NCBI GenBank assembly: GCA_028710695.1
Contig: JAQTTP010000003.1
Coordinates: 60,001 to 92,000 of the forward strand
Reading direction: 5' to 3'
Length of the DNA: 32,000 nucleotides
From: Candidatus Iainarchaeum sp.
GTDB taxonomy: Archaea; Iainarchaeota; Iainarchaeia; Iainarchaeales; 0-14-0-20-30-16
In this document: positions 1-24,874 of the stretch, in pieces
How positions within the stretch are numbered: position 1 is the first letter of the stretch
Layout of the letters: each line of letters begins with the position of its first letter
Notes under the pieces: generated by a model
Told to the model about the DNA's origin: nothing
Database searches by the model: none
Seen by the model: the letters and a program-made list of their open reading frames with translations, nothing else
Made by a program: the position numbers and the translations under genes

Positions 1-81
1 AATGAATACAAGCGTGGAGAAATCAAAAATGCAAAAAGTTGCATATATACCTTGTTAAAGGTAGTCGATATTTTTAGGTAA
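1..81 (+). CDS. 3' end (last 26 codons) of a gene cut by the window edge; possibly a fourth giant-family paralog
   Basis: Frame 1 is open from nt 1 to TAA at 79-81 (NEYKRGEIKNAKSCIYTLLKVVDIFR*). The first codons aat-gaa-tac (NEY) match aat-gaa-tat in the C-terminal ...VFWNEYAQQN* of the 10108-17346 protein. The 12-mer taggtaaagaac (75-86) recurs just after that gene's stop (17359-17370). Only 26 codons are visible, and a competing short frame-2 ORF exists (2-58). Confidence 0.3.
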   Translation, partial: NEYKRGEIKNAKSCIYTLLKVVDIFR

Positions 82-106
82 AGAACCATTTTTTGGTTCT
101 TTTTTT
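81..106 (+). terminator. Stem-loop plus T-run right after the upstream stop codon
   Basis: aagaacca (81-88) and tggttctt (94-101) form a perfect 8-bp inverted repeat with a T5 loop, followed by T-run 102-106. Oligo-T is the known archaeal termination signal. It may also be the AGAACC/GGTTCT element seen upstream of the other giant genes. Confidence 0.4.
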
Positions 107-111
107 AGTTA

Positions 112-153: not shown

Positions 154-157
154 ATTT

Positions 158-3100
158 ATGGGTCTGAGAGAATTTTACTATAAAATGGAAGAAAAATATT
201 ACGCGTTTTTGGACAGCTTAGACAAAAAAGGAATACCTGTGTATTCTGTTGTTGATCCAATTGATAAAGTTGTTCCATCCTTTGTTTTGTTTTTAGTTCT
301 TTTTGGAATAATTATAATCGCAATAATTTATGCTTTAATTGTTGCATTTGGATTGCCAATGACAAACCAAGTTACAGTAACATTTTCTGATAAGATGGGC
401 ACCCCAATCCCTAATGCTTTAGTAAGCTTTTCTTTGGCAGACTCAAATGAAGAAATGACAACTGATGCTTTTGGAACTATTAAGTTCGAAGCAGAACCAG
501 GAAAAGAAATAATGTTCTCTCTAAAATACAATGATAAGACCTATGTGAAATCAGTAAAAATTGAAGACGATGTATTACAATACAAAGTAAGTATTGACCA
601 ATTGAATTTAAGCAAACAAAAATTATCTTTCTCTCTTTATACAACAGATAATACTCCTTTACAAGCAGTAGATATCTACTTTTCATGTTCTAATTCAAGT
701 GCAGAAGCACCAGACAATATGATGGGCTATAGCACAAATGATGTTGACGTTGACGTAGATGGAGATTGTGGGTACCTAATGGTAAGCACAGCATCAGAAT
801 TCTATAAGCCAACAGATGATACTCAGATAGACAACGGTGAAGCAATATATTTAGATCCTGTACAATCATCAGGAGACTCTGCAATTGTTGTAAATGTAAC
901 TGACACAACAGGTGCAATAGTTACTGATTTTGAAGCAACACTATCTATTGGAATTTATGATGGTTATTATTCTTCAGGATATAGTAATGAAACAAGCCAA
1001 GTTCAATTCGCAAATCTTGCTGCAGGATTATATAAAATAACTGTAAGCAAATCTGGATACACAAATGCAGTTGGCTCTGTAACTCTTGAAGAAACAGATG
1101 TTAAAACATTGAACTTGCAGATGACAAAGCTAGAAGGCGGAACTCAGGTAAGCATAAAGGTAATGAACTTAGCATCAAAAGCTTTGCAAGGTGCAGAAGT
1201 TTGTTTTTATGATATTAATGGTGAAAGTTATACAAAAATTGGTTGTGCAACTACAAACGAAAGTGGGTTGGCAACTTATACTTTAGAAAAAGATAAATCA
1301 CACAAATTTACAGTAACAAAAGAAGGATACTCATCAATAGTTTATACTGATCTTGCTGCAAATTCAGACACAATTGAAGTGAAATTGTCATCAGTAGATC
1401 CAAGCAAGTATAGATTGATGAAAGTAAAAGTAATTGACTCAGAAGGAAAGCCTGTTGAGAATGCAAAAGTAAATGTTTATGATGACAAAGGAAATATAGC
1501 GCCTTATGAGCCTGGAACAACAGACTTAAATGGAATGGCTTATCTGTCTTTTATTGAAGATGGAAAATACAAATTATTTGCATACAAGTTGAATTATTCT
1601 GGATTCTCAGATTTAGCAGACTTTGATAATCAAGATAATTTAGCAACAATTGATTACACAGTTTCAATGTATATTCCAAAAGGAATAATTGCAGTTTCAG
1701 TAGTTGACTCTTATGGAAGCAATGTTCCGAATGCAGTTGTAAAATTCTTTGATGCTTCTTGGAATGAAATTACTGCTTTGGGTGGAAAACACACAGATGG
1801 TTATGGCCAATTGGGTGTTGAATATAGGGCAGACAAAAAATTATTTTTTGTAGTTCAAAAAGAAAGTTATGAAAATTATATTTCAAAATCAGAATATATA
1901 ATTCCAGACACAACAACTGAAAAGAAAGTTGTAATGGAAAAGAAAAAATTAAAGCCTGAACCAAAAGTAGAATTTGTAAATTTAACAACAGAAGATGGAA
2001 CTGATGTTTCTATTTTGGGTGCGGGAAATAAATATATTGCTAAATTTAAAATCACTTTGCCAGAAAAAGAGCAACCATTTGAAACAATGAGCGCATACTT
2101 TGTATCTGGAGATAAAGATATAGTTGAAAAAGATGGTTGGCATATAGAAAAAGTTGTGTATAGTGGATTAGGTACTTTGAGTAAAGGAAGAAGCTATACA
2201 GGAAATTATGATAATGATATAAAAGGGATAAACCAAGTTGGAAATGAAATTGAACAAGGAATGCCATTTGAAGATTCATTTAAATGGATTGGAATAAATT
2301 GGGATCTAGAAAAAATGGATTTAATTTCAGGAATATTCTTTGTTGATGTTTACTTGAAAGTAAAAGATACAACAAAGATTGGTGAAAACCTTCCAATAAA
2401 CTTTAAGTTGTCAACAGAAAATAAAGATGAAAAATTCACAGATCCTTTGAACGAAGTTCCAGAATTCCCAGACGCAAGCAAAACAAAACTGTATAACGAA
2501 AGTAAGAATAAATTCTTTACAGTTGGAACTGCTCAACAGACTTGTGACGAATTATTTTGTTTTGAAATAAACGTTGAAGACAATGACGAAGCAATAATCC
2601 AAGATATGGTTCCTGATACTCCCTATGTTTCAGAGTTAGGAAAGAACTATACTTTGAGATTTAAATTAATAAATAACAACATAAAACCAGTAACAAATTA
2701 TAGGGTAATAATAAAGAACGAGCAAGAAAATACTTTCTTTACAACTTCAAATATAAAAGGAGTTTCAGGAAATATAAGTCCTGTTTTGAACTCAGAAGTT
2801 GCAAAGCAAGAAAACAATTACCAGATTGTTTATAACGAAGATGTATATCAAGAATTGCAAAAGAATGATCTTGTAATTGGAGAGATAAATTTCGAGCCAA
2901 GAAAGATTGGAAGCGGAAGTTTGAAGTTTATTGTAATACAAGATAAACAAGAATATTATTCAAAAGAATTCTTGATAAATGTAAATGCTTACAAAGAAAT
3001 GACTGTAACTTTGGCTCCAGAAGTATTGCCGTCTTATATCCCTTTGAAAGTTGATTTATTAGCAAAGGATAAAGAAACAGGCGAATTAGTAACTGGTGCA

Positions 3101-6100
3101 AAAATATATGTGAAAGATAATTCAGGATTGGTTCTATTTATGGGGGCTACTGACGCAGAAGGAAAAGCAGTAATTGATTTGCCATCTCAAAAACCAAATG
3201 TTTTATTGAAATTATTAGTGTACAAGCCAAAGTATAAATCATTTGAATTTGAATACAAAACAAGTTCAGAATTTATAACTTTGAGCAAAGAAAAAATTGA
3301 TATGAAAATAGATGCGAAATTAGGATTTGCAAAAGAGAGTTTGTTCTTGACAAACACAAGTGAAGTTCCTGTAAAGATTGAAGATATCTTCTTGCAAGGA
3401 AATTTTGCAGAAAAATTGTCATTAGCTCAAATAAATAAATACTTTGAAGTATCACATAAAGGAAAAATGGTTGATAAATCTTTGAAGTATGATTTAGCAA
3501 TAAACCTTGCTTTGACAGAGTTAGGTCAGAACATAACTACAAATGAAGAGTATGATTCAATATTAGTAATTAAATTAAGTGCAATGGGCGGAAAATGGGA
3601 AATGAAAGTTCCAATGCACTTGCTTCTATCTGTTGGTGGAAGTGTTGATGACAGAACTTGTTTGGCTGCAGATTTAATTAATATGAAATTAGTTTCAACT
3701 GAAAATAAACAAGACAAGCAAACACTAACAATAACAAATGGCTGTACAATAAACGGAAAGCCAGTTTCATTGAATAATTTAGAAGCAAAATTAGAATGGA
3801 AAACAAATGCTTTGGGATCAATACAAATGACCAAAGAAGAATATTCAAATAATGTAATGCAAGCTTACTTTACAAGTTTGATTAACAAGTTGACTCCTAG
3901 TAGCGAGAATACTTTTGTAGTGAATATAGAACCAAAATCAAAAGTTTCTGGAAAAGGAGAAGCAATATTACATTTAAGAGCTTTGAACAATACTGAAAGT
4001 GGAGTTGAATATATAATATTAGATATTCCATTGGAAGTTGATGTTGTGAATTATGGTGAATGTATCCAGTTTGAGTTGCCAAATGCAGAAACAGATGTTG
4101 TTGCAACTTTAAGAGATGCAGACACAAGCTTTAAGGTAACAAACACATGTGCTGAAAAAATAGAAGTAACATTTAGCTTGAAGCCAGAGGATACTGTGCA
4201 GATAAGCCCAGACAAGATTTGGGTTAAAGCTAATGAAACAAAAGAAATTAAAGTAAAGCCGACAAATTCAGCAATTGGTGTTTATACTGTTGATGTATTT
4301 GGAAGAACTGAAGGCCACACAAATGAAGGAATAAGAGTAGGAATAAATGCTTTGAGGGTTCTATTGCAACCTTTGACAACAGATTGTTTCTACTTAGAGA
4401 ACTATGAGTTTGATATGGCAAGGAATCCAGAAGAAACAAAGTGGACAACTTTAGTAAATAAATGTGTAAACAAGCAAGCAGTTGTTCAATATGATTTGAA
4501 AATAGAAGTAGATGTTGATGGCTGGGATTATGTTTTAGGTATATTAGGTGGTGCAGCCGGTGGAGCAGTAGGTAATAAACTTGGCGGCATGATCGGTGAG
4601 CTTGGTGGTGGATTACTTGGCGGTTTAGGCGCAGGTAACTTCGGAATGGTAATGCTTGAAACTAAAGATGATTGTGAATTGGAATGTCTCTATAACTATT
4701 CTGGTGAAGAATATACTACCTGTGTGAATGTTTGTGCAAGTATGGGTCTTCCTGAAACAGAAGCCCCAAGTGGTACAACAGGTACTGGAAGTGGTGCTGG
4801 TGCAAGTGGAATTGGTGGAGATGTAAGTGGTACTCCTCCTGCAAATGGTACGGGTACAGGAACAGGTACTGGAGATAAACCGGCGGCAGATAAAAAGAAG
4901 TTTGACAAAGGAAGTTTTAAAGAGGCAATTACTGGTGGACTTGGTTCTGCAGCAGGATCTGCTGGAGTAAGTTACCTAATTGGAAGTCTAACTGGATTAG
5001 ATCCTGAGACAAAGAAAGATACTACTAAATGGTCTGCGATTTTAGGTGGTGTTGGTGGTCTTGCGGGCAGCTGGATTGGAGGCCCAATGGGTATGGTTCT
5101 GGGTGGTTTAGGTGGTGCAGTAGGTAACATTATTGGATTAGCATCTAATGATGGAGACACTATAGAAACAATAACAAGAACAATCCCAACAATGGTTGAA
5201 GATTATATGACTATGAACGATGTTCTCCTGACTGAGGCGGCACAAAAGAGCATGCTGGGTGGAAATATGGCTGCTTTAAAAGCAAAATCAATTGCAGATA
5301 AAGCAGGAACTGTGGCAGCAGAAATAATTAATGCTACGTCAGCTCTCTCTGGAAACGTAGTTTTTGAATCAGGTGGAACAATAGAAATAGAACTATCTAA
5401 AAAAATTGAAAGAACATTTAATAATCAAAATAAACTTGTAAAAGGAATTGGAGAGCAAGCAATTGAAATGTATCCAGTTGGATTTACAAAATCAAAAACA
5501 GGAATGGACAATAAAGTTGAAAGCTTGACTTTGTTATTGAATTATAATAGAAAGAATCTGAAGAGCTTAGTTGCAAGTCAGGATTATAGTACATCCGGAT
5601 GGACAACACAGCCTAACCAGTATATGTCACAGATGGGCGGGTATGGTCAGTCAGGCCAATATGGAATGCAGAATGGCGGATACAATGGCTATGGTTATGG
5701 TTCAAGTATGGGCTATGGCGGTTATGGAACTGGAATGGGTTATAGCGGAATGGACTCATACGGAATGCCATCTGCGTTTAGTACTATAGGACTACAAGCG
5801 GACTCAGATACAATATCCTATGAGGATGCTCAAGAAGACCAGAAAGTAGAAGAAATGGATAGAGAAAAAGTTGAAACATCTCTAGAGCCAGGAAATGTTG
5901 AAATAATAAATGAATATTCTCCGATAAGCATGTTATTTACTGATGTTGCTGATCAGCAAAAGAAATATAACTTGCCAATAGAGAATTGTTTCTTGGCAAA
6001 TGGCAAATCTGGAGCAACAGGTCCAGAAGCAAAACCAAAAGTTGCATTTACTTGGAGATGGAATGATGTTGTAGATTACCAAGTAGGCTCTGGTGGATAT

Positions 6101-7969
6101 ATGTGTAGTGACGGAAACATATATTGTGATGCTACACAGTTTACAATAGAAGTAATAAACAGATTAAAAATTGCAAATGGTTTATTGAAATCATTTAGTC
6201 CAGATTGTGAATATAGCCAAGCAATTTATAATGACACATTTGATGTTACTGATCAATATGTTGGTGTAAGTAGTGTTGTTGTTGAAAGACTTGGGAATTC
6301 ATCAAGTAACTACAATTTAGTTGTGAAAGTACAGAATAATTCCTTGAATAAGCTTTCAGGAAATTATATTGTAAAGGTAGTAGATACACAGCAAACAAAA
6401 GACCTTTACACATTTAATGGACAATTTGATTTGAGCAAGAAATCTAATGCTTCAGATGATGAATTGGTAATAACAAATGAAGTTGAATTGTACTATAGCA
6501 CATTCAAAGTTGAAGTTCAATTTAACTCTGTAAAGAACGAAGATACTACAGAAAAATTGCCATACAATTATGTAATACCTTATAATGGCGAGCAATTTGC
6601 TTATGACTCAACAGCACTAATGGGCTTAGAAAAAAGCACAGATAAAATAATAGAGTGGGGCAATTGTGCTAAGAAAGAAGGCGCAGCAACAACAATTTGG
6701 AATAAGTTGAACTTTGAAGCTTACCTAATGAAGGATGGATTTACAGATGACTTCTTGGCAGACTTCAAAGAATATGCTGTTAACCAGAAATTCTTAGATG
6801 CTCCTGGAGATGCAAAGAAAATAATAAACAACTTGCTTCCAAACAACCTAAAGTTCTTGCCAAAAGAATCTGCTTTGAATGCTATGGGCTATTCATTGCC
6901 GCAAGCAGGATTGTATAAAGTAGAAATTGTTGTGAAATATGGCGATACTCATATGGGCTGGGATGTATTTGACAGCGATGGAAAAATAATTGAAGATGTA
7001 AACTCCATTGCAGTTTATTTAGAGCCAGTAAAGTTTAGTGATAATCCACTATACTATTTGCCATTGGATGCAACTGTTGGTGTTGAGAATTATGAACTTA
7101 AGAGAATTGGATATGGTCTTGACTTTGGCGGAGACACTTTATGGTTCAACAAAGAAAGTGAAGATAATCCAACTTTGATACCAACATTGGTTTCTAAGTC
7201 TAATCCACAAGTTCATGTTGAAACTGTTTCAAAGCAAGATATGGAAACTCTGAACACTTATAAAGGATTAGTTCTAAAGGTTGTTCCAACAGGAACAGTT
7301 GGAGACACAGTAGAAAGAACAATATATTATTATCCATCAGTTCCAGCACCAGTAGCAATGTATATTAGTAAAGAATCAGATGGCCCAGCATATGGATCTT
7401 ATTTGATTTCAAGAGCAAACAAGGGACCTGTAAACTCAGGAAACTCCTTGATGAACTGGTATGGATTCTGTAACAAAGGAACTGAGATGTATGCTCCAGA
7501 AACAGATACAGAAAAGAAATATGCTTGTAAAGGATTCTCTGGCGAAGATATAATTGATCTTCAAGGATATCCTGATAAAGCAGGAACAAAGATAGACATA
7601 CCTTTGGGAGAATTTAAAGCAAATGCTTATGGAATGTTCTTTGATGAGGATAGCTTGTTGAGAACTCCAGAAACAAGCAAGGTATTCTTCAGAGGAATTA
7701 TTTACCTAACACCGAACGAAACATCAACTTTCAAGAAGATAACTGCAAGTGATGAAATGAAGATATTATATCCTGAAGGAGCAAGCGATGAATTCACACT
7801 TGAGCCTTTGAATAAGGATGTATCTACAGTTCAAAGCATTTACGACTTGGTTGGAGATGGGTATATGTGTGTAACTAATCCACAAGGCGGTGCAGGAGTA
7901 GAATTCTGGTGGAACCCTAAGGCTGTATTTGATACCTTGGAGTCCGGAGACGCGGAAGGTAGTAGTTAA
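158..7969 (+). CDS. Giant (2603 aa) membrane-anchored surface protein, paralog 1: conserved N-terminal module + TM helix, prealbumin/CarboxypepD_reg-like beta-sandwich repeats, central glycine-zipper region, G/Y-rich low-complexity tract, conserved C-terminal module
   Basis: This is a single uninterrupted ORF. The N-terminus MGLREFYYKMEEKYYAFLDSLD...IDKVVPSFVLFLVLFGIIIIAIIYALIVAFG aligns with the two other giant ORFs. It has repeated units of the type KVKVIDSEGKPVENAKVNVYDDKGN...TTDLNGMAYLSF..GKYKLFAYKLNYSG (e.g. nt 1418-1605), typical of carboxypeptidase-regulatory-like/prealbumin folds. Many N-x-S/T sequons are visible. GxxxG arrays lie at 4538-4657 and 5030-5146. Confidence 0.9.
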   Translation: MGLREFYYKMEEKYYAFLDSLDKKGIPVYSVVDPIDKVVPSFVLFLVLFGIIIIAIIYALIVAFGLPMTNQVTVTFSDKMGTPIPNALVSFSLADSNEEMTTDAFGTIKFEAEPGKEIMFSLKYNDKTYVKSVKIEDDVLQYKVSIDQLNLSKQKLSFSLYTTDNTPLQAVDIYFSCSNSSAEAPDNMMGYSTNDVDVDVDGDCGYLMVSTASEFYKPTDDTQIDNGEAIYLDPVQSSGDSAIVVNVTDTTGAIVTDFEATLSIGIYDGYYSSGYSNETSQVQFANLAAGLYKITVSKSGYTNAVGSVTLEETDVKTLNLQMTKLEGGTQVSIKVMNLASKALQGAEVCFYDINGESYTKIGCATTNESGLATYTLEKDKSHKFTVTKEGYSSIVYTDLAANSDTIEVKLSSVDPSKYRLMKVKVIDSEGKPVENAKVNVYDDKGNIAPYEPGTTDLNGMAYLSFIEDGKYKLFAYKLNYSGFSDLADFDNQDNLATIDYTVSMYIPKGIIAVSVVDSYGSNVPNAVVKFFDASWNEITALGGKHTDGYGQLGVEYRADKKLFFVVQKESYENYISKSEYIIPDTTTEKKVVMEKKKLKPEPKVEFVNLTTEDGTDVSILGAGNKYIAKFKITLPEKEQPFETMSAYFVSGDKDIVEKDGWHIEKVVYSGLGTLSKGRSYTGNYDNDIKGINQVGNEIEQGMPFEDSFKWIGINWDLEKMDLISGIFFVDVYLKVKDTTKIGENLPINFKLSTENKDEKFTDPLNEVPEFPDASKTKLYNESKNKFFTVGTAQQTCDELFCFEINVEDNDEAIIQDMVPDTPYVSELGKNYTLRFKLINNNIKPVTNYRVIIKNEQENTFFTTSNIKGVSGNISPVLNSEVAKQENNYQIVYNEDVYQELQKNDLVIGEINFEPRKIGSGSLKFIVIQDKQEYYSKEFLINVNAYKEMTVTLAPEVLPSYIPLKVDLLAKDKETGELVTGAKIYVKDNSGLVLFMGATDAEGKAVIDLPSQKPNVLLKLLVYKPKYKSFEFEYKTSSEFITLSKEKIDMKIDAKLGFAKESLFLTNTSEVPVKIEDIFLQGNFAEKLSLAQINKYFEVSHKGKMVDKSLKYDLAINLALTELGQNITTNEEYDSILVIKLSAMGGKWEMKVPMHLLLSVGGSVDDRTCLAADLINMKLVSTENKQDKQTLTITNGCTINGKPVSLNNLEAKLEWKTNALGSIQMTKEEYSNNVMQAYFTSLINKLTPSSENTFVVNIEPKSKVSGKGEAILHLRALNNTESGVEYIILDIPLEVDVVNYGECIQFELPNAETDVVATLRDADTSFKVTNTCAEKIEVTFSLKPEDTVQISPDKIWVKANETKEIKVKPTNSAIGVYTVDVFGRTEGHTNEGIRVGINALRVLLQPLTTDCFYLENYEFDMARNPEETKWTTLVNKCVNKQAVVQYDLKIEVDVDGWDYVLGILGGAAGGAVGNKLGGMIGELGGGLLGGLGAGNFGMVMLETKDDCELECLYNYSGEEYTTCVNVCASMGLPETEAPSGTTGTGSGAGASGIGGDVSGTPPANGTGTGTGTGDKPAADKKKFDKGSFKEAITGGLGSAAGSAGVSYLIGSLTGLDPETKKDTTKWSAILGGVGGLAGSWIGGPMGMVLGGLGGAVGNIIGLASNDGDTIETITRTIPTMVEDYMTMNDVLLTEAAQKSMLGGNMAALKAKSIADKAGTVAAEIINATSALSGNVVFESGGTIEIELSKKIERTFNNQNKLVKGIGEQAIEMYPVGFTKSKTGMDNKVESLTLLLNYNRKNLKSLVASQDYSTSGWTTQPNQYMSQMGGYGQSGQYGMQNGGYNGYGYGSSMGYGGYGTGMGYSGMDSYGMPSAFSTIGLQADSDTISYEDAQEDQKVEEMDREKVETSLEPGNVEIINEYSPISMLFTDVADQQKKYNLPIENCFLANGKSGATGPEAKPKVAFTWRWNDVVDYQVGSGGYMCSDGNIYCDATQFTIEVINRLKIANGLLKSFSPDCEYSQAIYNDTFDVTDQYVGVSSVVVERLGNSSSNYNLVVKVQNNSLNKLSGNYIVKVVDTQQTKDLYTFNGQFDLSKKSNASDDELVITNEVELYYSTFKVEVQFNSVKNEDTTEKLPYNYVIPYNGEQFAYDSTALMGLEKSTDKIIEWGNCAKKEGAATTIWNKLNFEAYLMKDGFTDDFLADFKEYAVNQKFLDAPGDAKKIINNLLPNNLKFLPKESALNAMGYSLPQAGLYKVEIVVKYGDTHMGWDVFDSDGKIIEDVNSIAVYLEPVKFSDNPLYYLPLDATVGVENYELKRIGYGLDFGGDTLWFNKESEDNPTLIPTLVSKSNPQVHVETVSKQDMETLNTYKGLVLKVVPTGTVGDTVERTIYYYPSVPAPVAMYISKESDGPAYGSYLISRANKGPVNSGNSLMNWYGFCNKGTEMYAPETDTEKKYACKGFSGEDIIDLQGYPDKAGTKIDIPLGEFKANAYGMFFDEDSLLRTPETSKVFFRGIIYLTPNETSTFKKITASDEMKILYPEGASDEFTLEPLNKDVSTVQSIYDLVGDGYMCVTNPQGGAGVEFWWNPKAVFDTLESGDAEGSS

Positions 7970-8000
7970 TAACTACTCTTTCTTTCTTTTTTATTTTTTT
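7961..8000 (+). terminator. Hairpin spanning the stop codon followed by a long T-rich tract
   Basis: agtagtt (7961-7967) and aactact (7971-7977) are a perfect 7-bp inverted repeat with loop aat. They are followed by ctttctttcttttttattttttt up to 8000, which includes T6 and T7 runs. Confidence 0.5.
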
Positions 8001-8082
8001 GTGATTTAAATGCCAAGTTTGAATTTATGCTCAAAATCGCAAAAATGTCAAACAGAGACATTAAAATCAAAAGGTGATTTAA

Positions 8083-8712: not shown

Positions 8713-8738
8713 TTCGATTAGATAGAAGGATATGTATA

Positions 8739-8762: not shown

Positions 8763-8789
8763 TTATTGTATTTTTAAGGAGATGTTAAC

Positions 8790-9028: not shown

Positions 9029-9034
9029 GGCAGT

Positions 9035-9219: not shown

Positions 9220-9945
9220 CTAAAGAATTTGTTCTATAATTGAACCCATTCTTTTGATTAACTCTTCTTTTATTTTCTGAGTGGTGGGATAATTATTTAT
9301 TATTTCTTCAAGTAGAGCTAGAATCCGTTTTTCTCCAAAATATTCATAATGATTGTATAAAATGCACATATAATCTTCTCTAAATGCTCTAAATATGTTT
9401 GCTGGGTCAGACCAATCAATCTGTTTTCTTTTTGCAAGAGAAAAATCAATAAAATAAACTTTTCCATCTTTGTATGTTGCATTCTGGAAATGCGGGTGTC
9501 CATGTTCTACGCCCAAAGCATGCATTTTTCCTAATTCTCTAAAAAAAGCAGGGAATATGTGTGGGTTAGATGGGTCTTCTAAGACACTTTGTGTAATACT
9601 TTTGCCCATATCCATAAAGGCCATAGGGTGGTGCCCATTTTCTGGAACCTCAAATCTAAAAGGCTCTTCAACATTTACCCCAGAATTATGTAAATATTTA
9701 ACAATATCAAGCTCGTGTTTTGAAACATTTCGAAGGTAAACTTTTTTTCCGCTTTTTGTTATAGCAACACGAGTACATTTTGCAAGTAGTTTCATATGCC
9801 GATCTCTTAATTCTGGGTTACCGTGTCTAACTGCTAGCATTGCTGATGCTTTTATAGCTGTATCTGTGGAATAAATAGATATTTCTTTTGGTTCTAGTCT
9901 TGTTACTTCTGGCCTTTCATAGGGCCGTTTTATTGGCTTTCTCAT
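9220..9945 (-). CDS. Protein-kinase-like fold protein (RIO/Bud32/Kdo-LPS kinase-like), atypical catalytic motif
   Basis: LGKMHALGVEHGHPHFQN resembles the kinase catalytic loop (lH..gi.HGDl...N). DGKVYFIDFSLAK resembles the DFG-region strand. ELDIVKYLHNSGVNVEEP resembles the alpha-C/hinge region of RIO/Kdo kinases. No glycine-rich loop was recognised. Assignment is by motif memory only. Confidence 0.45.
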   Translation of the reverse strand: MRKPIKRPYERPEVTRLEPKEISIYSTDTAIKASAMLAVRHGNPELRDRHMKLLAKCTRVAITKSGKKVYLRNVSKHELDIVKYLHNSGVNVEEPFRFEVPENGHHPMAFMDMGKSITQSVLEDPSNPHIFPAFFRELGKMHALGVEHGHPHFQNATYKDGKVYFIDFSLAKRKQIDWSDPANIFRAFREDYMCILYNHYEYFGEKRILALLEEIINNYPTTQKIKEELIKRMGSIIEQIL

Positions 9946-17346: not shown

Positions 17347-17497
17347 TAAAAAAGTAAGTAGGTAAAGAACAGCATTAGTTAGGTTAAAAAAATGCTAAAA
17401 AAAGGTCAACGGTTAGTACAGAAAGGAGACAAAAAACACCTCTTAAGATGGTGTACAAAATTTGGCTCCTATAAGAATTATAATTATTGGTGATTGT

Positions 17498-20400
17498 ATG
17501 AGTTTTAGAGAGCTATATACGAAAATAGAAGATAAATATTATGCGATGTTGGATAAGATAAATCAAGTTATACCTATCCACAAGCTTACTGACCAAATTG
17601 ACAAGGTAATGCCCTCGATGATATTCTTTTCTGTATTCTTTTTAGTGATAATTGGACTTATTATTTGGCTAATAGTTGCTAGTGTTGGATCTTCAACAAT
17701 CACTTTTGAATTTTATTCTAATGGAACACTTGCATCCGGAGAATTTAATGTAACTTTCTCTTCCGAAGGTGGAGAACAAATTGCTCTTGTGAAGAATGGA
17801 ATTGCCTTTGGAAATTATGATATGGGGGATTTTGTAACTGTGAAAATAAAAGAGCCTTATACTTTTTCAAAAACTTATGAAATTAAAAGCGAATTAATGA
17901 AAATTGACTTGCCAGGATTAGACAAACTTGCTTTGAAGGAAGCAGAAAAAAAGAATAAAGAAATTTCTATTTATTTGTATGATGGCACATCTGGGTCTCT
18001 AGTTAAAGAAAAAGCGATTGTTAGCGCAAGTTGTGAGGATTTTAGTAAAGAAATAGAAGTAACTGGAAACACAAAACTTGCAATTCCTGATAATTGTTCT
18101 TATGTTGATTTGTTAGCAACTGCTGACGGATATTTACAATCTAAAAAAAGTTGTGATACCGCTTTGTGTAAAATATTTATGGACAAAAAAGGAACAACTA
18201 CTCCAACAACTGTTGTTCAATCAATTCCAAAAAATAAAGTTGTTGTGTATGTAAAAGATAATAAAGGAACTTCTCTGGAAGGGTTTGATGTAAAAATTAC
18301 TGGGGTTGAATCAATACAAGATGTTTTGAACCAAGCAAAAACAAATGCTTTTGGAAGTTACACTTTTGAAGATATTACTGTTGGAAATTATAAATTGTAT
18401 GTGTCTGATCCTTCTGGAACTTTGACTACTGTAAGCAAAGATTTAATTGTTGTATCTGGGCCTCCAGTTATTGCAGATATTACTATGGAAAAGCCGCCTT
18501 TGGGATATTTTAATGTAAAAGTGAATACTGAGAATACAGGTGGATTTGCATTAGCTACTTTGTATGTGAAAGATGTAAATGATAATTATCTTGGAACTGT
18601 GGACATAAATACTGGTGTAGAATACAAGATAGGTGTTTATGAAAAAGGAAAATATATTTTTAATGTAATTCCTGTAACTGGTTATGATGAAAATTATTCA
18701 ATTGTTACTGAAGAAAGAGAATACGATTTGCAAAGCGGAGATAAAAAAGTTGATTTAGTTTTGAAAGAATTAAAATATTATGAAAATACAAAAGTTAATT
18801 TGAAAGTTGTAAAAGAAAAAGATGATGGGTCTGAGGAACCATTGCCAAATATGAAAATAATAGTTGAAAATGACGAAGGCTGGCAAATAGAATTGCCTGC
18901 TGACAAAACAAAAACAGATGTAAATGGTTCTGTGAGTTTTATTTTGCCATCTGGAGTTTACATAGTTCATGCTTATAATTATTATTTTACTGGAGAAACA
19001 AATTTACAATTATTGGACACTCCTGGTGCAACAGAATTGCCTGAAACAGATGCAAAGATTGCTGTTCAGATTGGAAAAGCAAAAATAAAAGTTTCTGTTA
19101 AAGACGAAGATGGAAAGGATTTGACAGATGTGAAAGTAGATATCTATATGGATTCCAATTTTTTTGGACCAATGTTTATAAGTCAAGAAAAATACAAAGA
19201 GGTTCAGGTTGAGGCATATCATAGTTATTATGTAAAGGTAACAAAAGAAGGATATTTGAATTATTATAGTCCAGAGTTGGTTTTGAAGAAAGACCAATTA
19301 ATGGATGAGAAAGTAATTTTGTATAATAAATTAGAACACTTAAACTCAGATCCTGAAATGATTTATGTTGGGGCATATAAAGATCAAGAATTAAAAACAA
19401 AGCTTGATAAAATAGATCAAGAGAATGAGTTTTATTATGTGTTTGATTTAGTTGTTCCAGAATTTAGTGAAAAATTGTATGAAATTTCTGGGGTTAAAGT
19501 AACTGGTGTTGCAGGAAACAAAAATTTGCCAGTTTTAGAAAGCGATTTAGTTTTAAAGAACGTATTTGCGTCTGGAAAAACACATTTATTTAGTACAATA
19601 ACTGGAACTTCTTTAGCAGAACAAGGTGAAGATTTTACTTATACTGCAAAATCTTTTACAAGCGAGTTTAATGGGGGCTCTTATGTTGCAAGAATGGTTG
19701 TGCATTTGAGATCTACTGATATTCCTCAAATAGGGGATAAATTATTCTTTTATTATAAATTAGATATAGATACTAAACAAAATGGCTCTTTTAATTTGCC
19801 AATACCAACTGACGCAGAATATTATGAATTAATTAAGTTCTTGGGAAAACGAGAACTTTGTGAAAATGAAGTTGTTTGTGTTGATACTTACTTAGATGGA
19901 ATGGCAACAAGTAGTTTGCCTGGCGGAAGCGAAAATAAAGTGGAATTATATTCTGGAAAGCAGAATAATATTCTTGTAAATCTTACAAAGGGTGATGAAC
20001 TTCCAACTGAACTTGAAGCAAGTAAGTTTACAGTATTCAATTCTACAATTTCTTCTGTAGAGAACTTTAATTCTTTGAAAGACTTCTATGTTGATTTGGA
20101 AGATATGAGTTTAGTGCACGACAAAATAACATCTACAAAGCCAATAGAAATTGACTCACAAACAGCACCGGTATTTGTAAAAGAAGCATCAATAAATAAT
20201 TATAAAATTAATACTACTTTGAAGTTTGATTCAAAAATTGAATTGGTGGAACCAGAGAATTCAAAACTTTATTTTAATTTTGATACTACTAATGAAGTTG
20301 AGCAAGTATATGTTGATTTAGAAACAATGAACGATGACGAACCATTAAAGTTAGAAGGGCTGCCAGAAGGAGATCTTTTGATTCCTGGAATTGAAAACTC

Positions 20401-23400
20401 TTTTGATGTAATTGTGAAATCTGGAGAAGATAAGATTGGGGCTGCAATAATAAAAATATATTTCTTTGATGGAATGAATTGGTCTTTAGAAAATACTTTT
20501 ACTGCAGGAAATGATGGTGTTGCAAAAATTACTATAAAGCCACACACACAAGGTGAAGAAGTAAAAATATCTGCTGAAAAAGAAAGTTATTTGCCTTGTG
20601 CAAAGATTTTATTAGTAAGTACTGATTTGTTTGAAATAAACAAAAGCAAGAATGAAACAAAAATAGTTTATCCAAAAGATTTAAATCCAGTTGCAGGAAA
20701 ATTGGGAATAAAAAACAAAACAAATATTGATTTTGAAGTTTATAATGTGGAATTTGTGGGTTCTTCAAATTTGGGTTTATTGATGAATGTAGAAAAAATG
20801 GAAAACTACCTTAAAGATGCAAAACCATTGTTAATTCCAAATGAAGAAACAATAGGATTTAAAATGCATTATAATGATTTGCCAGTACAAACTTTGACAG
20901 ATTCAGTTGCTCTTGATGATGTTCATGCAATGTTATCTGTTAGGCCAAAAGGATCAGAAAGTGAAATTGTTTTGGATGTTCCAATAACTTTGGAAATAAC
21001 TTTTAATAATCAGCCTTTGGAAGAGAATTGTGTTTCTGTTGAATTTACAAAAGATTTAAGTAAACTATCTGGGGAAACAGAGTTTAGTGCTGTATTCCTG
21101 AACGGTGTTGCGCCAGAAACTTATTTGATAATAGAAAACTCTTGTACAATTGAATTGAACGAAGGCCAAGGAAGTGTTGCGGATTATGAATTTGCTGACT
21201 TTTTGTTAGATGCGTCATTTTCTAAGATGGCAAATAATATAATGGGCGGATTCACAATTAATATTGAAGGTGCAAGTGATAATACAAAAACAGAAAATTA
21301 TTCTTTGTTTAAAGTTGATACTGGCGAAGTAATAAAATTGCTTTCTCCAAAGAAAAAGAGCAATGACAAATATATTTACAAAATCACATTTGAAAAACTT
21401 GGAGATTATGAATTTGGAAAGAACGGAACAAATGTAGAATTTAAATTTATTCCAAAGTACCAAGGTGTTGGAAACCAAACGATCTCTTTTGGAGAGAAGA
21501 AACTTTCAATGAACGTTTCTGAAAAGAAGATATCTGATTGCTTATATTTCGGGTTGAATACAAATGTTAATACCCAATCTGTTGCTACCGACACTGAAGG
21601 AGTGGCTACTGAAGAAGGTTCTGAACAGCAAGTTATTATGCCAATTAGTATAGACGAACAACAATATTATTTGAAAGGTGGAAATGGAATATTAAGATTG
21701 GGTTATGATTATGTTGATGAGACTGTGGGCCCAGAATCTTTGAATGCGAATTTGACTTTGGATAACACAAGTAACTTGCAAATAACTAGGCCAGGTAATG
21801 ATTATGTTGTAAACTCCCTGCCGCTTTTAATTAAGAACACTTGTGGAATTGATTTGGAAATAAAATTGTGTAAAGAAGATGATGAATATTGTAGAATTCC
21901 TGATGTAGGATTTATGCAATTTGATACTTTATATGGTGTTGAAGGATTTGAGTTATATAATACTCCTTTAACTATTGGTGCGGATAAAGAAATACAATTC
22001 TCCTTATTGAGGCCGCAGGAATTCTCCGGTGCTGTTGTACTTCCTTTGTATGTAAAAAACACAACAGGAGAATATGGCTTGGCAAAAGAAGCAAAGGTAT
22101 CAGTTCAATCTTCATTGTTTAATCCATACTTTGTGTTAAATCCATTTGTTGAAGATGGAAACATGGACATTACTTTCTACAAGAATGAATATTATCCAGA
22201 TATGACTGGTTGGTCAGATCCAATAGAGAAACAGTTATTGACCAACGACACAGATTCAAGCTCATATCTGCGATTGATCCAAATAACTCCTGGTCCAATT
22301 TTTAATTATGATGGGGACGATGATTCTGGAAATATTTTAGATTCTTTTGAAGCACTGAACCCAAAGTCAATTGACTATACGGATGATAGTTCTGATGTTG
22401 ACCAAAGTCTTAGTGAAAAAGTTGTTGGGGTTGTAGGCGGTATGATTAGTGGCGGCGTAGATATATTGTACTATATAAAAGAAGTAGAATATAATCTTCC
22501 ACAATGGGCTATAATAAAAATAATGGCAAATAGATTCCATAAAGGGTCTTTGAGTGATTTAGATGATGATGTGGCCGCAACAGCAGAATATAGAATTTGG
22601 TCAGAAAGCTTGCCAATACAAAATATATTAAATAATAAACAGATTTTTGACGGTTTTAATAATGATTGGTGTGAGCTTGAAGATGATTCTTGCTTCTTTA
22701 ATTATGAAGGCCCAGTTCAAAAAATTGCAGATATTTTGCGTGAAACTGTCGGAACAAAGTACCCTTATTTTACATCAATAAGTGTTGCAAGGTTGGAAGG
22801 AGATTGTGGTTGGTCAAATGTTATTGCCTATGCACAAGGGTTTTGTCCACAGGGGTATGAACTTGCAAAAATAGAACTTTTTAGAAAAGATGGCGGAACT
22901 GTTGATGGCAGAGATAATACTTTCTCTCAAGTTACTGAAGGCAAGACAACAAAATACTTATATGGTGGCTCTGTAAACTTTGAAGATAAATATATTAATG
23001 AAGAGTCAGATACTGGCTATCAGATGATGACTATTTGTAGGCTTCCTAGATCAGAGTTTGGAGAAGTAGATCGTGCTGTTGGGGGAACAATGAAATATAG
23101 TTCTTTTGGCAGTGGGTCAATATTTGATTCCTCAGGAATAGAAAATATTGTAAAAAGTAAGATCCAAGCAACAGACATATTTAATTGCACGGACTGCACT
23201 TCTGAATTGAGAGAATTTTTATTTGATGTATATGATGCAGAGGCAGCAGATATGGATTGTGAAATAACACCGCCAGGTTATTTTGATGCGGGTGATAATG
23301 ATGAATATGAGATATACCAGAATAATTCATCTGGATGCCCCGGATTTGACTACTCAAAAATAAACTTATTAAATGAGTTATACCAAGGCAAGGAAAATGA

Positions 23401-24874
23401 TGTAGACAATTATAAGGCAAGGACTGCGGCAGTAGTAACTAGTATAGTAACAAACTCAGGGAAAACGACATCTGGAGAACTTGCTTATGCAGCAAATATG
23501 GCTTTTGCAGGTAGTGATACTTTCTTTGGTTATATTGATGATGCATATGGTATTAATTTTGATGGGCTAATAATAGAACTTTGTAAAGATGGTTCAAAGA
23601 CAAAAAATAATGGTACTTGTAGTCATGCAACTCAATTACGTGCTAGCTTTGGACCGTATAATTATAATTCCATCTCTATAACTGCTGCTGAATTTGATGG
23701 CTTAAATTCAAACATAAGACTATATCTTGAGCCAAAGACAATGAAGAAAGACTTTGCATTCTATAAGAAAGTAAATTCATGCCCATATGGTGGGTATACT
23801 GGCCCAGAAGTAAAGCCAACAATAAATTATACTTGGGCAGAAAGTGCAATAAAAAAAGATTTCTGTGTTGTTGAGGGTGAAGAGAATTATGCAGATGTAA
23901 ATGCTTGTGATTTAGTTCAATTCTCTAAAGTGATTTCAAAACAATTTTCAGATGATATGGAACAAAAGCATTTTACTGTAAAACTGATGTATGACAACTA
24001 TTCTGAAAGTGCAATAAATTCTTTAATAGAATGGTCTTTCTTTGAACACATAAAAGATTTAAGAATCCTGAATTATGATGGAAGCCCGGTGGGAGAAATT
24101 GGGCCTGGAATTTACAATGTAGATTTAATACGTGATGAAAATGTATTGGATGTGTACTTATCATATCTGACAAGTTATGGGCCAGATCATATATTCTATA
24201 GGATGCCTGTAGACAATGTTGGTACTGGGGCAATCCCTGGAATTGGAACTTCAATGAACTATCCAATAAATTATGATGGCTTTGGAAGCTTTAGTCAGAT
24301 TAAAGATGACGTTTCTACCTTAAAAGAATATTCTGTTTCAAACCACGATTTGAAAACAATAAATACAACTCAAAAAGGAACTGTGTTTGCAGGATACTTT
24401 AATGATGGCTTGATATATTGGAATAACATGGATGTATATCTGCTGACTGCACACTTGGGAACTGACGAGAATAAAGAAATTTTGCTAACTGCTCCAGAAT
24501 ATGATACGGAAATCTATGAAGTTCTAAAATCTGGCTGGATTTATGAAGATGGTGAAGACTACTACTATGCTGAAAATGCGGGATTTGGGTTTGGAGTGGT
24601 TGACACAGATAATGGCAAGAAGTTAAAGATAAGTAATGCAAGCGGATACAATAGAACTGTAAAGAAAATATTATTCTATCCACAAGGAAGCGCGTTGGAT
24701 TTGCCAGAACAGGATGATGTAACTCTTACACAGCTTGATGTTGAGCCAATATACAGTATAACAGACATATTCAAAGGATTGGAAAATGAAAACATTTGTT
24801 ATAGGGCTTTGGAAGACGGAAGTGAATATTATTATAACCCTTTGAAATTATTAGATATAATACAAACGCAATAA
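17498..24874 (+). CDS. Giant (about 2458 aa) membrane-anchored surface protein, paralog 3
   Basis: The ORF is open from 17462 (TTG). The ATG at 17498 is preferred because it gives MSFRELYTKIEDKYYAMLDKIN...IDKVMPSMIFF, colinear with the other two N-termini, and is preceded by the SD ggtgat (17489-17494). It has beta-sandwich repeats (e.g. KIKVSVKDEDGKDLTDVKVDIYMD...YYVKVTKEGYLN) and a shared C-terminal motif at about 23765-23950. Confidence 0.88.
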   Translation: MSFRELYTKIEDKYYAMLDKINQVIPIHKLTDQIDKVMPSMIFFSVFFLVIIGLIIWLIVASVGSSTITFEFYSNGTLASGEFNVTFSSEGGEQIALVKNGIAFGNYDMGDFVTVKIKEPYTFSKTYEIKSELMKIDLPGLDKLALKEAEKKNKEISIYLYDGTSGSLVKEKAIVSASCEDFSKEIEVTGNTKLAIPDNCSYVDLLATADGYLQSKKSCDTALCKIFMDKKGTTTPTTVVQSIPKNKVVVYVKDNKGTSLEGFDVKITGVESIQDVLNQAKTNAFGSYTFEDITVGNYKLYVSDPSGTLTTVSKDLIVVSGPPVIADITMEKPPLGYFNVKVNTENTGGFALATLYVKDVNDNYLGTVDINTGVEYKIGVYEKGKYIFNVIPVTGYDENYSIVTEEREYDLQSGDKKVDLVLKELKYYENTKVNLKVVKEKDDGSEEPLPNMKIIVENDEGWQIELPADKTKTDVNGSVSFILPSGVYIVHAYNYYFTGETNLQLLDTPGATELPETDAKIAVQIGKAKIKVSVKDEDGKDLTDVKVDIYMDSNFFGPMFISQEKYKEVQVEAYHSYYVKVTKEGYLNYYSPELVLKKDQLMDEKVILYNKLEHLNSDPEMIYVGAYKDQELKTKLDKIDQENEFYYVFDLVVPEFSEKLYEISGVKVTGVAGNKNLPVLESDLVLKNVFASGKTHLFSTITGTSLAEQGEDFTYTAKSFTSEFNGGSYVARMVVHLRSTDIPQIGDKLFFYYKLDIDTKQNGSFNLPIPTDAEYYELIKFLGKRELCENEVVCVDTYLDGMATSSLPGGSENKVELYSGKQNNILVNLTKGDELPTELEASKFTVFNSTISSVENFNSLKDFYVDLEDMSLVHDKITSTKPIEIDSQTAPVFVKEASINNYKINTTLKFDSKIELVEPENSKLYFNFDTTNEVEQVYVDLETMNDDEPLKLEGLPEGDLLIPGIENSFDVIVKSGEDKIGAAIIKIYFFDGMNWSLENTFTAGNDGVAKITIKPHTQGEEVKISAEKESYLPCAKILLVSTDLFEINKSKNETKIVYPKDLNPVAGKLGIKNKTNIDFEVYNVEFVGSSNLGLLMNVEKMENYLKDAKPLLIPNEETIGFKMHYNDLPVQTLTDSVALDDVHAMLSVRPKGSESEIVLDVPITLEITFNNQPLEENCVSVEFTKDLSKLSGETEFSAVFLNGVAPETYLIIENSCTIELNEGQGSVADYEFADFLLDASFSKMANNIMGGFTINIEGASDNTKTENYSLFKVDTGEVIKLLSPKKKSNDKYIYKITFEKLGDYEFGKNGTNVEFKFIPKYQGVGNQTISFGEKKLSMNVSEKKISDCLYFGLNTNVNTQSVATDTEGVATEEGSEQQVIMPISIDEQQYYLKGGNGILRLGYDYVDETVGPESLNANLTLDNTSNLQITRPGNDYVVNSLPLLIKNTCGIDLEIKLCKEDDEYCRIPDVGFMQFDTLYGVEGFELYNTPLTIGADKEIQFSLLRPQEFSGAVVLPLYVKNTTGEYGLAKEAKVSVQSSLFNPYFVLNPFVEDGNMDITFYKNEYYPDMTGWSDPIEKQLLTNDTDSSSYLRLIQITPGPIFNYDGDDDSGNILDSFEALNPKSIDYTDDSSDVDQSLSEKVVGVVGGMISGGVDILYYIKEVEYNLPQWAIIKIMANRFHKGSLSDLDDDVAATAEYRIWSESLPIQNILNNKQIFDGFNNDWCELEDDSCFFNYEGPVQKIADILRETVGTKYPYFTSISVARLEGDCGWSNVIAYAQGFCPQGYELAKIELFRKDGGTVDGRDNTFSQVTEGKTTKYLYGGSVNFEDKYINEESDTGYQMMTICRLPRSEFGEVDRAVGGTMKYSSFGSGSIFDSSGIENIVKSKIQATDIFNCTDCTSELREFLFDVYDAEAADMDCEITPPGYFDAGDNDEYEIYQNNSSGCPGFDYSKINLLNELYQGKENDVDNYKARTAAVVTSIVTNSGKTTSGELAYAANMAFAGSDTFFGYIDDAYGINFDGLIIELCKDGSKTKNNGTCSHATQLRASFGPYNYNSISITAAEFDGLNSNIRLYLEPKTMKKDFAFYKKVNSCPYGGYTGPEVKPTINYTWAESAIKKDFCVVEGEENYADVNACDLVQFSKVISKQFSDDMEQKHFTVKLMYDNYSESAINSLIEWSFFEHIKDLRILNYDGSPVGEIGPGIYNVDLIRDENVLDVYLSYLTSYGPDHIFYRMPVDNVGTGAIPGIGTSMNYPINYDGFGSFSQIKDDVSTLKEYSVSNHDLKTINTTQKGTVFAGYFNDGLIYWNNMDVYLLTAHLGTDENKEILLTAPEYDTEIYEVLKSGWIYEDGEDYYYAENAGFGFGVVDTDNGKKLKISNASGYNRTVKKILFYPQGSALDLPEQDDVTLTQLDVEPIYSITDIFKGLENENICYRALEDGSEYYYNPLKLLDIIQTQ

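Follow-up and report, generated by a model that had tools for sequence, protein, structure and literature searches.

Giant N-anchored extracellular proteins and small membrane proteins encoded by a chromosomal cluster of Iainarchaeota

Giant bacterial adhesins composed of immunoglobulin (Ig)-like repeats (the RTX/BIg adhesins, such as SiiE, LapA, and MpIBP) are anchored at one end and consist of a long Ig-like extender that leads to a distal module. Giant proteins with a long conserved leader are also found beside small dedicated membrane components, as in the accessory Sec (SecA2/Y2-Asp) systems of serine-rich-repeat adhesins and among proteins with ESPR-type signal peptides. The locus described here lies in a stretch of 32,000 nucleotides (nt), referred to below as the window, from Candidatus Iainarchaeum sp. 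(GenBank assembly GCA_028710695.1, contig JAQTTP010000003.1, positions 60,001–92,000). Candidatus Iainarchaeum is a genus of the phylum Iainarchaeota (formerly Diapherotrites), and the window contains an Iainarchaeota-specific chromosomal cluster that encodes several non-redundant giant N-anchored extracellular rod-plus-head proteins (G1, G2, and G3), as well as small membrane proteins (s1–s5). Literature searches, in which subscription papers were incompletely covered, returned no description of giant proteins in Diapherotrites/Iainarchaeota or of a link between such giants and s1–s4, and no cultured representative of the phylum surfaced in them.

In design, the giants appear broadly similar both to the Ig-repeat adhesins and to the SPEARE proteins of Nanohaloarchaeota, yet, as judged from their sequences, they fail every defining feature that was tested. 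With the RTX/BIg adhesins they share a very large size, anchoring at one end, a string of Ig-like domains, and a distinct distal module; they differ in being archaeal, in being anchored by an N-terminal leader with a transmembrane helix, in the presence of a mid-chain hairpin and a novel C-terminal module (C-module), and in forming ancient sets of paralogs accompanied by s1–s4. No RTX repeats or type I secretion signal are found in the giants by Pfam (no match to HemolysinCabind or related families), their C terminus being a conserved globular module. A long leader and adjoining small membrane proteins are common to this cluster and to the accessory Sec and ESPR systems, and the analogy may extend to the way they work, but not beyond it: there is no homology, s1–s4 match no family, and no SecA or SecY paralog is encoded in the window.

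The hallmarks of SPEARE proteins are serine-protease, laminin-G/adhesion, and intracellular type III restriction-endonuclease domains, usually accompanied by a C-terminal transmembrane segment (PMC6642349). The giants resemble them in their size, membrane anchor, and mostly extracytoplasmic extent, and in belonging to a DPANN lineage, with several copies that take up a few percent of a genome of ~1 Mb. However, Pfam/NCBIfam scans of the giants found no serine-protease, laminin-G, or type III restriction-endonuclease domain, and the conserved part of the giants, unlike that of SPEARE, is extracellular.

The S-layer protein of Micrarchaeota (101 kDa, with TIGR01564/01567 domains; bioRxiv 10.1101/2021.04.28.441871) is unrelated to the giants, and other archaeal S-layer types comprise Ig-like and MSTP-like S-layer proteins (bioRxiv 10.1101/2024.05.28.596244). 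Like archaeal S-layer proteins in general, the giants are acidic, rich in β-sandwiches, extracellular, tethered to the membrane, conserved within the phylum, and unrecognisable outside it, whereas their mass of 270–290 kDa (typically 40–200 kDa in S-layer proteins), N-terminal anchor, several cysteines, and multi-paralog cluster with s1–s4 set them apart. In turn, NOMO/CarboxypepD_reg rods and bacterial α2-macroglobulins are also membrane-anchored strings of prealbumin/MG-like domains; the giants have weak bMG3 and MG4 matches and their relatives faint NOMO1-like ones, although the giants are twice as long as NOMO and carry a different C-terminal module. The α2-macroglobulin idea raised by bMG3 and MG4 was rejected, with neither a C[GL]EQ/CxEQ thioester motif nor a TED or A2M match in Pfam.

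Three giant paralogs in the window

The giants and their parts are the following.

158–7969, plus strand: G1, an open reading frame (ORF) of 2603 amino acids (aa), 286 kDa, isoelectric point (pI) 4.6; type-1 giant
158–355, plus strand: G1 leader (aa 1–41, …EEKYY..LD…PVY.VVDPIDKVVPSF) and transmembrane helix (aa 42–66); highest conservation among the paralogs, hydropathy 3.3
356–4654, plus strand: G1 ectodomain stalk of prealbumin/Ig-like β-sandwich domains (Pfam, BLASTP)
4655–5167, plus strand: G1 central glycine-zipper-like hydrophobic, low-complexity linker (aa 1500–1670), with a hydropathy peak at aa 1644–1662
5168–5959, plus strand: G1 pre-C region (aa 1671–1934) with a Gly/Tyr-rich low-complexity insert, matching the first ~300 aa of P0018–P0023, which are C-halves encoded on their own
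5960–7969, plus strand: G1 C-module (aa 1935–2603), from alignments, hmmsearch, and an AlphaFold2 (AF2) model
10108–17346, plus strand: G2, an ORF of 2412 aa, 269 kDa; nearest to type-3 giants, located elsewhere downstream of type 1
14746–14883, plus strand: hairpin in the centre of G2, formed by two hydrophobic helices (aa 1547–1592; Kyte-Doolittle 2.5 and 2.05)
15550–17346, plus strand: G2 C-module (aa 1815–2412), included in the family alignments; BLASTP against G1, E 1e-15
17498–24874, plus strand: G3, an ORF of 2458 aa, 275 kDa; divergent giant in which the leader and stalk of the family are kept and the C-module is shortened
23792–24874, plus strand: G3 degenerate C-module (aa 2099–2458), three collinear islands against the family hidden Markov model (HMM)
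1–78, plus strand: probable C-terminal tail of a fourth giant (…NEYKRGEIKNAKSCIYTLLKVVDIFR*), from the frame-0 translation and the tail pattern of the family

An earlier note, made from the letters of this DNA, had described a tandem array of giant paralogous membrane-anchored surface proteins with a common architecture. ORF calls confirm the three genes on one strand, with a total of 22,428 nt (~70% of the window), and the leader with its transmembrane helix, as well as CarboxypepD_reg domains, recur in all three. The ORF of G3 opens at 17462 or 17498, the homologous start being the ATG at 17498. The G+C content of the window is 30–39%, with the intact 7.4-kb ORF of G3 lying in a 32% G+C genome; since chance stop codons are frequent at such values, ORFs of 7 kb must, on the evidence of the sequence, be held open by selection.

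Pairwise BLASTP searches give significant support to the paralogy: G1 and G2 are 23% identical across aa 1–1155 (E 2e-47) and align again in their C-terminal parts (G1 aa 2183–2383 with G2 aa 2070–2252, E 1e-15), G2 and G3 align over ~600 aa (E 1.6e-46), and G1 and G3 over ~650 aa (E 2.6e-23), the homology of G3 to both being that of its N-terminal ~650 aa. The ectodomains, which had been described as diverged almost beyond recognition, are thus alignable between G1 and G2 across more than 1100 aa. No nucleotide similarity was found among the giant copies except a single 34-nt match. All three proteins are acidic (pI 4.5–4.6) and carry 24–29 cysteines each. G1 is 100% identical to a protein of a ‘Candidatus ainarchaeum sp.’ metagenome-assembled genome (MAG) in NCBI, where it is annotated only as a ‘carboxypeptidase-like regulatory domain-containing protein’.

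A fourth copy upstream of the window, which had been called probable, is plausible from sequence, because nt 1–78 in frame 0 (NEYKRGEIKNAKSCIY...*) fit the family tail (...WNE...C-I) and other genomes usually have an upstream giant. The tail pattern of the family is WNP or WNE, followed after 10–30 aa by a Cys-Ile motif, and a giant is present upstream of the G1-type gene in most related loci.

Stalks, linkers, and heads

The leader of ~40 aa is the best-conserved stretch of the three paralogs, with 18 of the first 50 columns identical, and in G1, G2, and G3 it is followed by a strong hydrophobic helix (Kyte-Doolittle 3.2–3.6); alignment and hydropathy thereby bear out the conserved N-terminal module proposed before. 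Its motif, E-D/E-K/R-Y/W-Y … D-x-I-D-x-V-x-P-S, together with the transmembrane helix, is shared by G1, G2, G3, and nearly all of their homologs. The same leader and helix also precede other ectodomains in P0015 and P0017 (1754–1877 aa), which are devoid of C-module motifs; the precomputed Pfam list for P0015 includes PKD and further Ig-type domains. Because these other large proteins bear it, the leader may be a general targeting or anchoring signal in the phylum Iainarchaeota.

The stalk that follows is recognisable in G1 as domains at aa ~70–115, 243–323, 421–480, 971–1050, and 1322–1371, and can be aligned with G2 across aa 1–1155 and with orthologs across aa 1–1500. CarboxypepD_reg (PF13620) is matched above its gathering threshold of 32.3 bits in all three giants (G1 76.5, G2 37.7, and G3 45.7 bits), with weaker Pfam matches to Big_1, MG4, bMG3, and SpaA within the first ~1400 aa. 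The CarboxypepD_reg assignment covers the stalk domains alone and names no family for the whole proteins.

The central region is the variable cassette of the family, with contents that include, by eye, Gly/Tyr-rich low complexity, coiled-coil-like Ala/Lys-rich runs, Cys-rich repeats, and a vWA-like region. The membrane-like segment once assigned to this region in all three giants is clear only in G2, with its two transmembrane helices, whereas that of G1 is glycine-zipper-like, with Gly-rich GxxxG runs that can be read from the sequence, and that of G3 amounts to a weak hydropathy peak. Hairpins similar to that of G2 are seen in P0008, P0009, and P0013. In P0012 and P0014, a seemingly vWA-like stretch (…LVYIVDGSRTF… and …VLYLVDSSKSF…, respectively), noted by eye, lies between the stalk and a C-module that is devoid of the Ig-like insert described below. 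The pre-C region of G1 contains a Gly/Tyr/Met-rich low-complexity stretch, …QMGGYGQSGQYGMQNGGYNGYGYGSSMGYGGYGTGMGYSGMDSYGM…, at aa ~1840–1900 (window positions 5675–5860), which is kept in the close strain L073.

The C-module of ~650 aa is shared in full by G1 and G2, both of which carry its motifs (G.TG..alP+v.f.W.W, YCDATQF, DGYs.DF..DF, LPFDG.vG…R.GYG, PS.ATPV, and FWWNP). In G3 it is only about half as long and is matched by the family HMM in three collinear islands (E 1.5e-8 for the whole sequence), and the G3-type shortened module is also present in the ortholog of the sister-lineage contig L074. The C-terminal module once ascribed to all three giants is thus complete in two of them and a short, degenerate remnant in the third. 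Alignments show invariant polar residues in its short motifs (D259, D264, D268, R382, Y385, and G-Y-G), as well as conserved cysteines.

An AF2 model of G1 aa 1935–2603, based on an alignment of 20 sequences, has a predicted local distance difference test score (pLDDT) of 77 and a predicted template-modelling score (pTM) of 0.68. It consists of a long helix after YCDATQF, a small helical part with DGYS.DF..DF, and a large β-rich body, with an inserted β-sandwich (residues ~86–210 in model numbering) that is missing in some members of the family. Foldseek searches of the whole module against PDB and BFVD gave no global match, the inserted Ig-like sandwich alone being matched (3isy, ApaG, and factor XIII barrels; E about 1e-3). 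With the insert removed, the core model (pLDDT 73.5) matched nothing in PDB at E ≤ 1e-3. At the top of the Foldseek rows of this core stood viral fusion proteins of class II (flavivirus E and phlebovirus Gc) with a probability of 0.02–0.06 and a template-modelling (TM) score of 0.05–0.07, which were dismissed as noise; the C-module does not have the layout of class II fusion proteins or fusexins, a β-rich fold of three domains that carries fusion loops and leads into a stem and a C-terminal transmembrane segment. A search of its profile against PDB sequences returned only noise (Asp3 at E 0.83). The fold predicted for the C-module therefore has no significant match in the sequence or structure searches.

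The same profile also finds stand-alone proteins of ~960–1100 aa, composed of their own signal peptide, a Gly-rich hydrophobic helix, and then the pre-C region and C-module. At locus L001, such a C-half (P0018) is encoded directly behind an N-half of 1704 aa (P0010) within the tandem array, and split pairs of this kind are present in at least six further loci. Because the stand-alone C-halves have their own signal peptides and split gene pairs exist, these sequences indicate that the C-half is extracellular and separable from the N-half at the central hydrophobic region, in agreement with the conserved cysteines of the C-module.

As for recognisable families, Pfam and NCBIfam scans at lenient thresholds of the linker and pre-C tiles gave nothing credible, and no enzymatic or catalytic family was matched in the giants, nor, at E ≤ 0.1, a PGF-CTERM end. 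The earlier statements that the proteins contain no enzymatic domain, no such sorting end, and no family that can be named all held: Pfam, NCBIfam, and PDB profile searches yielded no family, and the NCBI name covers the stalk domain only.

Ancient subfamilies and the small membrane proteins

With full-length G1 as the query, a word-indexed search returned 16 relatives in addition to G1, 13 of which (P0002–P0014) are family members of 1700–3200 aa. In an exhaustive hmmsearch of 1.84 billion metagenomic cluster representatives, the C-module profile matched 839 of them at E ≤ 1e-3 and 537 at E ≤ 1e-30, most being 2200–3250 aa long with the module at the extreme C terminus. In the GTDB species genomes (one per species), 237 stretches were confirmed, nearly all of them from Iainarchaeota, and 71 loci, from the best 80 of these 237 genome matches, were kept for comparison. 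Almost all of these are titled Iainarchaeum, Diapherotrites, or unclassified ‘archaeon’ MAGs, including the complete genome GW2011_AR10 and Candidatus Iainarchaeum andersonii, with a few labelled Micrarchaeota, Thaumarchaeota, or Chloroflexi (labels as recorded, which may be binning errors). By its sequence distribution, the giant gene cluster occurs almost only in Iainarchaeota.

Most loci contain two or three giants arranged head-to-tail on one strand. Ward clustering of 132 C-modules resulted in three groups, which follow each other on the chromosome in the order 2-1-3 in 15 loci and 1-3 in 19; average-linkage clustering did not split the subfamilies, whereas Ward clustering and subfamily HMMs did. 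G1 fits best the HMM of cluster 1 (302 bits), and its summed BLAST score reaches 550–680 bits against the central giants of other loci (aa 1–1500 and 1940–2600), compared to ~250 against G2. G2 fits best, if narrowly, the HMM of cluster 3 (200 bits, with 191 and 171 for the others), and its best BLAST matches are mostly giants located immediately downstream in other loci. G3 is weak against all three HMMs. On L074, however, the layout of the window recurs (giant, giant, s1–s5, RpiA, Mre11-like, and a minus-strand gene of 483 aa), one of its giants having 49% identity with G2 in the 1067 aa that are available, and the other 41–45% with G3 along the full length. Since this full-length ortholog has the same shortened C-module, G3 is a type that is divergent yet conserved, rather than a copy in decay. 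Taken together, these sequence comparisons show that the three giants are ancient subfamilies in a conserved order, each with orthologs elsewhere.

The core-gene context of the cluster comprises genes for HerA-like and PolB proteins in other loci, and for ScpA, RpiA, and Mre11-like proteins in the window; the downstream ORFs of ~500 and ~815 aa in other loci, considered as functional partners, proved to be HerA-like and PolB genes in ordinary synteny. Type-1 and type-3 genes usually adjoin elsewhere, whereas ScpA, an L40e-like ORF, and tRNA-Arg intervene in the lineage of the window. Some loci hold two giants, and in L027 (Candidatus ainarchaeum sp. STA_60) the giant, of G1 type, is solitary, with no other giant and no s1–s4 within 10 kb downstream, so that array size and linkage differ between lineages. 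In the close strain L073, an AAA_14/DUF4143 ATPase gene (2885–4153) is located between the G1 ortholog and ScpA; because the window is devoid of it at 7970–8082, it represents a strain-level insertion or deletion beside the giant.

Rates of change were estimated as the ratio of nonsynonymous to synonymous substitutions (dN/dS) by the Nei-Gojobori method, comparing the window with L073 (about 86% nucleotide identity).

G1 C-module: dN/dS 0.13, 87% aa identity
G1 pre-C region: dN/dS 0.15, 80% aa identity
G1 glycine-rich linker: dN/dS 0.67, 50% aa identity; the fastest part
ScpA: dN/dS 0.05, 93% aa identity
L40e-like ORF: dN/dS 0.04, 96% aa identity

In a comparison with another close strain, L076, the last 144 codons of G3 have 52% aa identity and dN of 0.37 (dS being saturated and unreliable), while s1–s5 are 85–99% identical (dN/dS 0.01–0.12) and RpiA 93%. 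Constraint thus acts on the G1 head (dN/dS 0.13) and on s1–s5 (0.01–0.12), and the linker and the G3 tail change several-fold faster than their neighbours. Rapid change along the protein, as had been expected, is therefore confined to these two parts, the C-module of G1 being under purifying selection. The idea that the copies are recently diversifying surface proteins did not survive the comparison, in view of the three C-module clusters, the conserved order, the orthologs of each copy, and the low dN/dS of the G1 head.

The tandem same-strand array does not end with G3. The window reads G1 … G2-G3-s1-s2-s3-s4, all on the plus strand, a continuation absent from the earlier note, and the sequence comparisons indicate that the gene unit extends past 24874 into s1–s4.

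24908–25327, plus strand: s1, 139 aa, three transmembrane helices and a charged tail; dN/dS 0.12
25332–25691, plus strand: s2, 119 aa, polytopic; dN/dS 0.09
25708–25971, plus strand: s3, 87 aa, polytopic, conserved core from about 25726; dN/dS 0.03
25977–26315, plus strand: s4, 112 aa, polytopic, Gly-rich acidic tail; 99% identical in L076
26423–26767, plus strand: s5, 114 aa, N-terminal hydrophobic region; dN/dS 0.05

The gaps from G3 through s1, s2, and s3 to s4 are 33, 4, 16, and 5 nt. In tblastn searches, s1-s2-s3(-s4) are found behind the last giant, with order and strand unchanged, in 37 of 72 loci, including AR10, at a median distance from giant to s1 of 106 nt (≤600 nt in 29 of 36), with s4 kept after s3 in 10 loci. 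Only in the window’s own lineage (L074, L075, and L076) does s5 come after s4, and tblastn found no match to it in the 72 other loci. No family was matched by s1–s5 in Pfam and NCBIfam, even at E ≤ 10. The s1 family consists of 89 short hypothetical proteins, those with a named source being all from Diapherotrites or Micrarchaeota-labelled MAGs, and its alignment shows D15, K21, and D81, which lie within or next to the transmembrane helices, to be invariant. Profile comparisons with hhalign (s1 with s2, probability 97%, E 2e-11; s1 with s3, 87%, E 4e-6), the scores of which hydrophobic composition can inflate, suggest that s1 and s2 are probable paralogs and that s3 is probably a paralog of s1 as well; s2-s3 and s3-s4 gave no significant result.

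Possible functions and neighbouring genes

The reading that we tentatively favour, giving it somewhat less than an even chance, is that the cluster encodes a lineage-specific, constitutive assembly of the cell envelope, in which rod-like stalks and distal heads would be combined with a small membrane platform. Each giant is ordered as a leader of ~40 aa, a transmembrane anchor, an Ig-like string of ~1450 aa, a hydrophobic hypervariable linker, and a C-half of ~900 aa with the head of ~650 aa. With the leader assumed to face the cytoplasm, the Ig-like string would serve as a rod or spacer anchored in the cell’s own membrane, the chain would be re-anchored, or given a hinge, at its central hydrophobic hairpin, and distally the conserved heads would touch one another or a conserved ligand. 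The giants would then be non-redundant subunits of a constitutive surface assembly, an envelope or coat, whereas s1–s4 might be the membrane platform that receives the leader and its helix, as a dedicated insertion or anchoring complex functionally similar to the accessory export of giant adhesins. This reading is favoured because of the wide occurrence of the cluster, its fixed order and core-gene context, the purifying selection, and the acidic pI, which is typical of surface-layer proteins; the small proteins are tied to the giants by their common strand and order, the short gaps, and the limitation of the s1 family to the same lineage.

Several points weigh against such an assembly. The function of the giants is wholly inferred, and the link to the s-proteins consists in conserved gene adjacency and a common distribution. 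No S-layer domain (TIGR01564/TIGR01567 or DUF1608) and no PGF-CTERM/archaeosortase signal was matched in Pfam/NCBIfam at E ≤ 0.1, and there is no enrichment of sequons for N-glycosylation (z −0.4 to 1.8). The giants, with their 24–29 cysteines, are two to three times bigger than known archaeal S-layer proteins. Copy number varies, down to two giants in some loci and one in L027, and an arms race at an interaction surface would also fit the fast G3 tail and linker.

The main rival, in line with the host attachment raised in the earlier note, is a device for attachment or bridging between cells, with an anchor in the cell’s own membrane, an Ig-like rod, a head that binds a ligand of the partner, and a central hairpin inserted in the partner membrane; it seems to us somewhat less likely than the envelope assembly. 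It would suit a DPANN lineage with a small genome, the adhesin-like succession of anchor, Ig-like extender, and distal globular module, the mid-chain hydrophobic hairpin, and the fast change of the linker and G3 tail, and giant SPEARE proteins of Nanohaloarchaeota have been proposed to serve in host interaction (PMC6642349). A capacity to grow autonomously has, however, been suggested for some DPANN, with Iainarchaeota and Iainarchaeum among them (PMC6349945, PMC6642349), the Pfam/NCBIfam scans show no lectin, LamG, or protease domain, and the head is conserved phylum-wide under purifying selection, whereas adhesins specific for a partner would be expected to vary at the tip. The viral fusion proteins at the top of the Foldseek rows of the core would favour such a device, but the rows are non-significant, with the very low probabilities and TM-scores given above. 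These data are a warning that a giant DPANN protein need not be a host adhesin in rapid evolution. The conserved head could also be taken as an unrecognised enzyme or polymer binder carried on the Ig-like stalk for extracellular acquisition of nutrients, which is improbable. Clustering of invariant polar residues in the C-module motifs, purifying selection on that module, and the protein depolymerisation inferred for Diapherotrites (PMC6349945) agree with it; nevertheless, neither a catalytic family in Pfam/NCBIfam nor, by sequence or fold, a PDB entry is matched, the need for three or four ordered paralogs together with s1–s4 would be left unexplained, and G3 is conserved though most of its module is lost.

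The variable parts can be read differently, with the giants as diversifying surface antigens or phage-receptor decoys for which tandem duplication would be the source of variation for evasion. Tandem copies of very low pairwise identity, the hypervariable central linker, and a G3 tail 52% identical between strains whose neighbouring genes are at 85–99% all point in this direction, yet the proposal is made quite improbable by the orthologs of each paralog found elsewhere in conserved order, the dN/dS of the G1 C-module, the lack of inter-copy nucleotide similarity that would permit gene conversion, and the absence from the window of a diversity-generating retroelement or recombinase. Hardly any weight can be given to a polymorphic-toxin or contact-dependent-inhibition-like system, with a C-terminal effector delivered by the stalk and immunity conferred by the small membrane proteins. 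Small ORFs behind a giant and glycine-zipper-like segments recall such systems, but across 839 representatives the C terminus is the most conserved part of the proteins and not a variable cassette, s1–s4, unlike immunity genes, are highly conserved in a fixed order across the phylum, and the Pfam/NCBIfam scans contain no toxin domains.

Going beyond the envelope assembly favoured above, we can speculate, with considerable doubt, that the cluster represents an undescribed phylum-specific surface machine: either an Iainarchaeota cell wall built on a new principle, or an apparatus for intercellular bridging or membrane insertion, with a head of new fold. If that were the case, the leader of 40 aa would be its own targeting signal and s1–s4 its own membrane platform. 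Iainarchaeota genomes are ~1.2 Mb, yet 20–30 kb (about 2%) are spent on the cluster; because so much is kept, ordered, and purified by selection in a small genome, the cluster seems central to the build or interactions of the cell. It bears on the envelope and lifestyle (free-living or symbiotic) of Iainarchaeota, and offers as targets three types of giant subunits, a head without a known fold relative, and a candidate leader signal with its candidate receptor complex.

The genes between G1 and G2 encode ScpA, a 51-aa zinc-ribbon ORF, tRNA-Arg, and a minus-strand ORF. The housekeeping character once given to this interval holds for ScpA and tRNA-Arg, whereas the gene called rpl40e has only a weak likeness to L40e (Pfam E 0.019, below cut-off). 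An ORF of 241 aa at 9220–9945 (minus strand), between tRNA-Arg and G2, has a weak HEPN-like Pfam match (E 0.0012, also below cut-off). Downstream of the cluster, 26859–29984 and 31482–31868 contain ordinary housekeeping genes for a UDG-superfamily protein, a GNAT acetyltransferase (minus strand), RpiA, a Mre11-like metallophosphoesterase, tRNA-Glu, and tRNA-Leu, with the UDG and GNAT genes missing from the syntenic L074 and L075. The ORF of 485 aa at 29981–31438 (minus strand), without a Pfam match, has a lipoprotein-like N terminus (…LSLSGC), several Cys-rich repeats, and the sequence HELVH (HExxH, zincin-like) near aa 340. Its position is conserved in L074 and L075 (483 aa), and Cys-rich repeats similar to those of this ORF are found as inserts in the giants P0005 and P0025.

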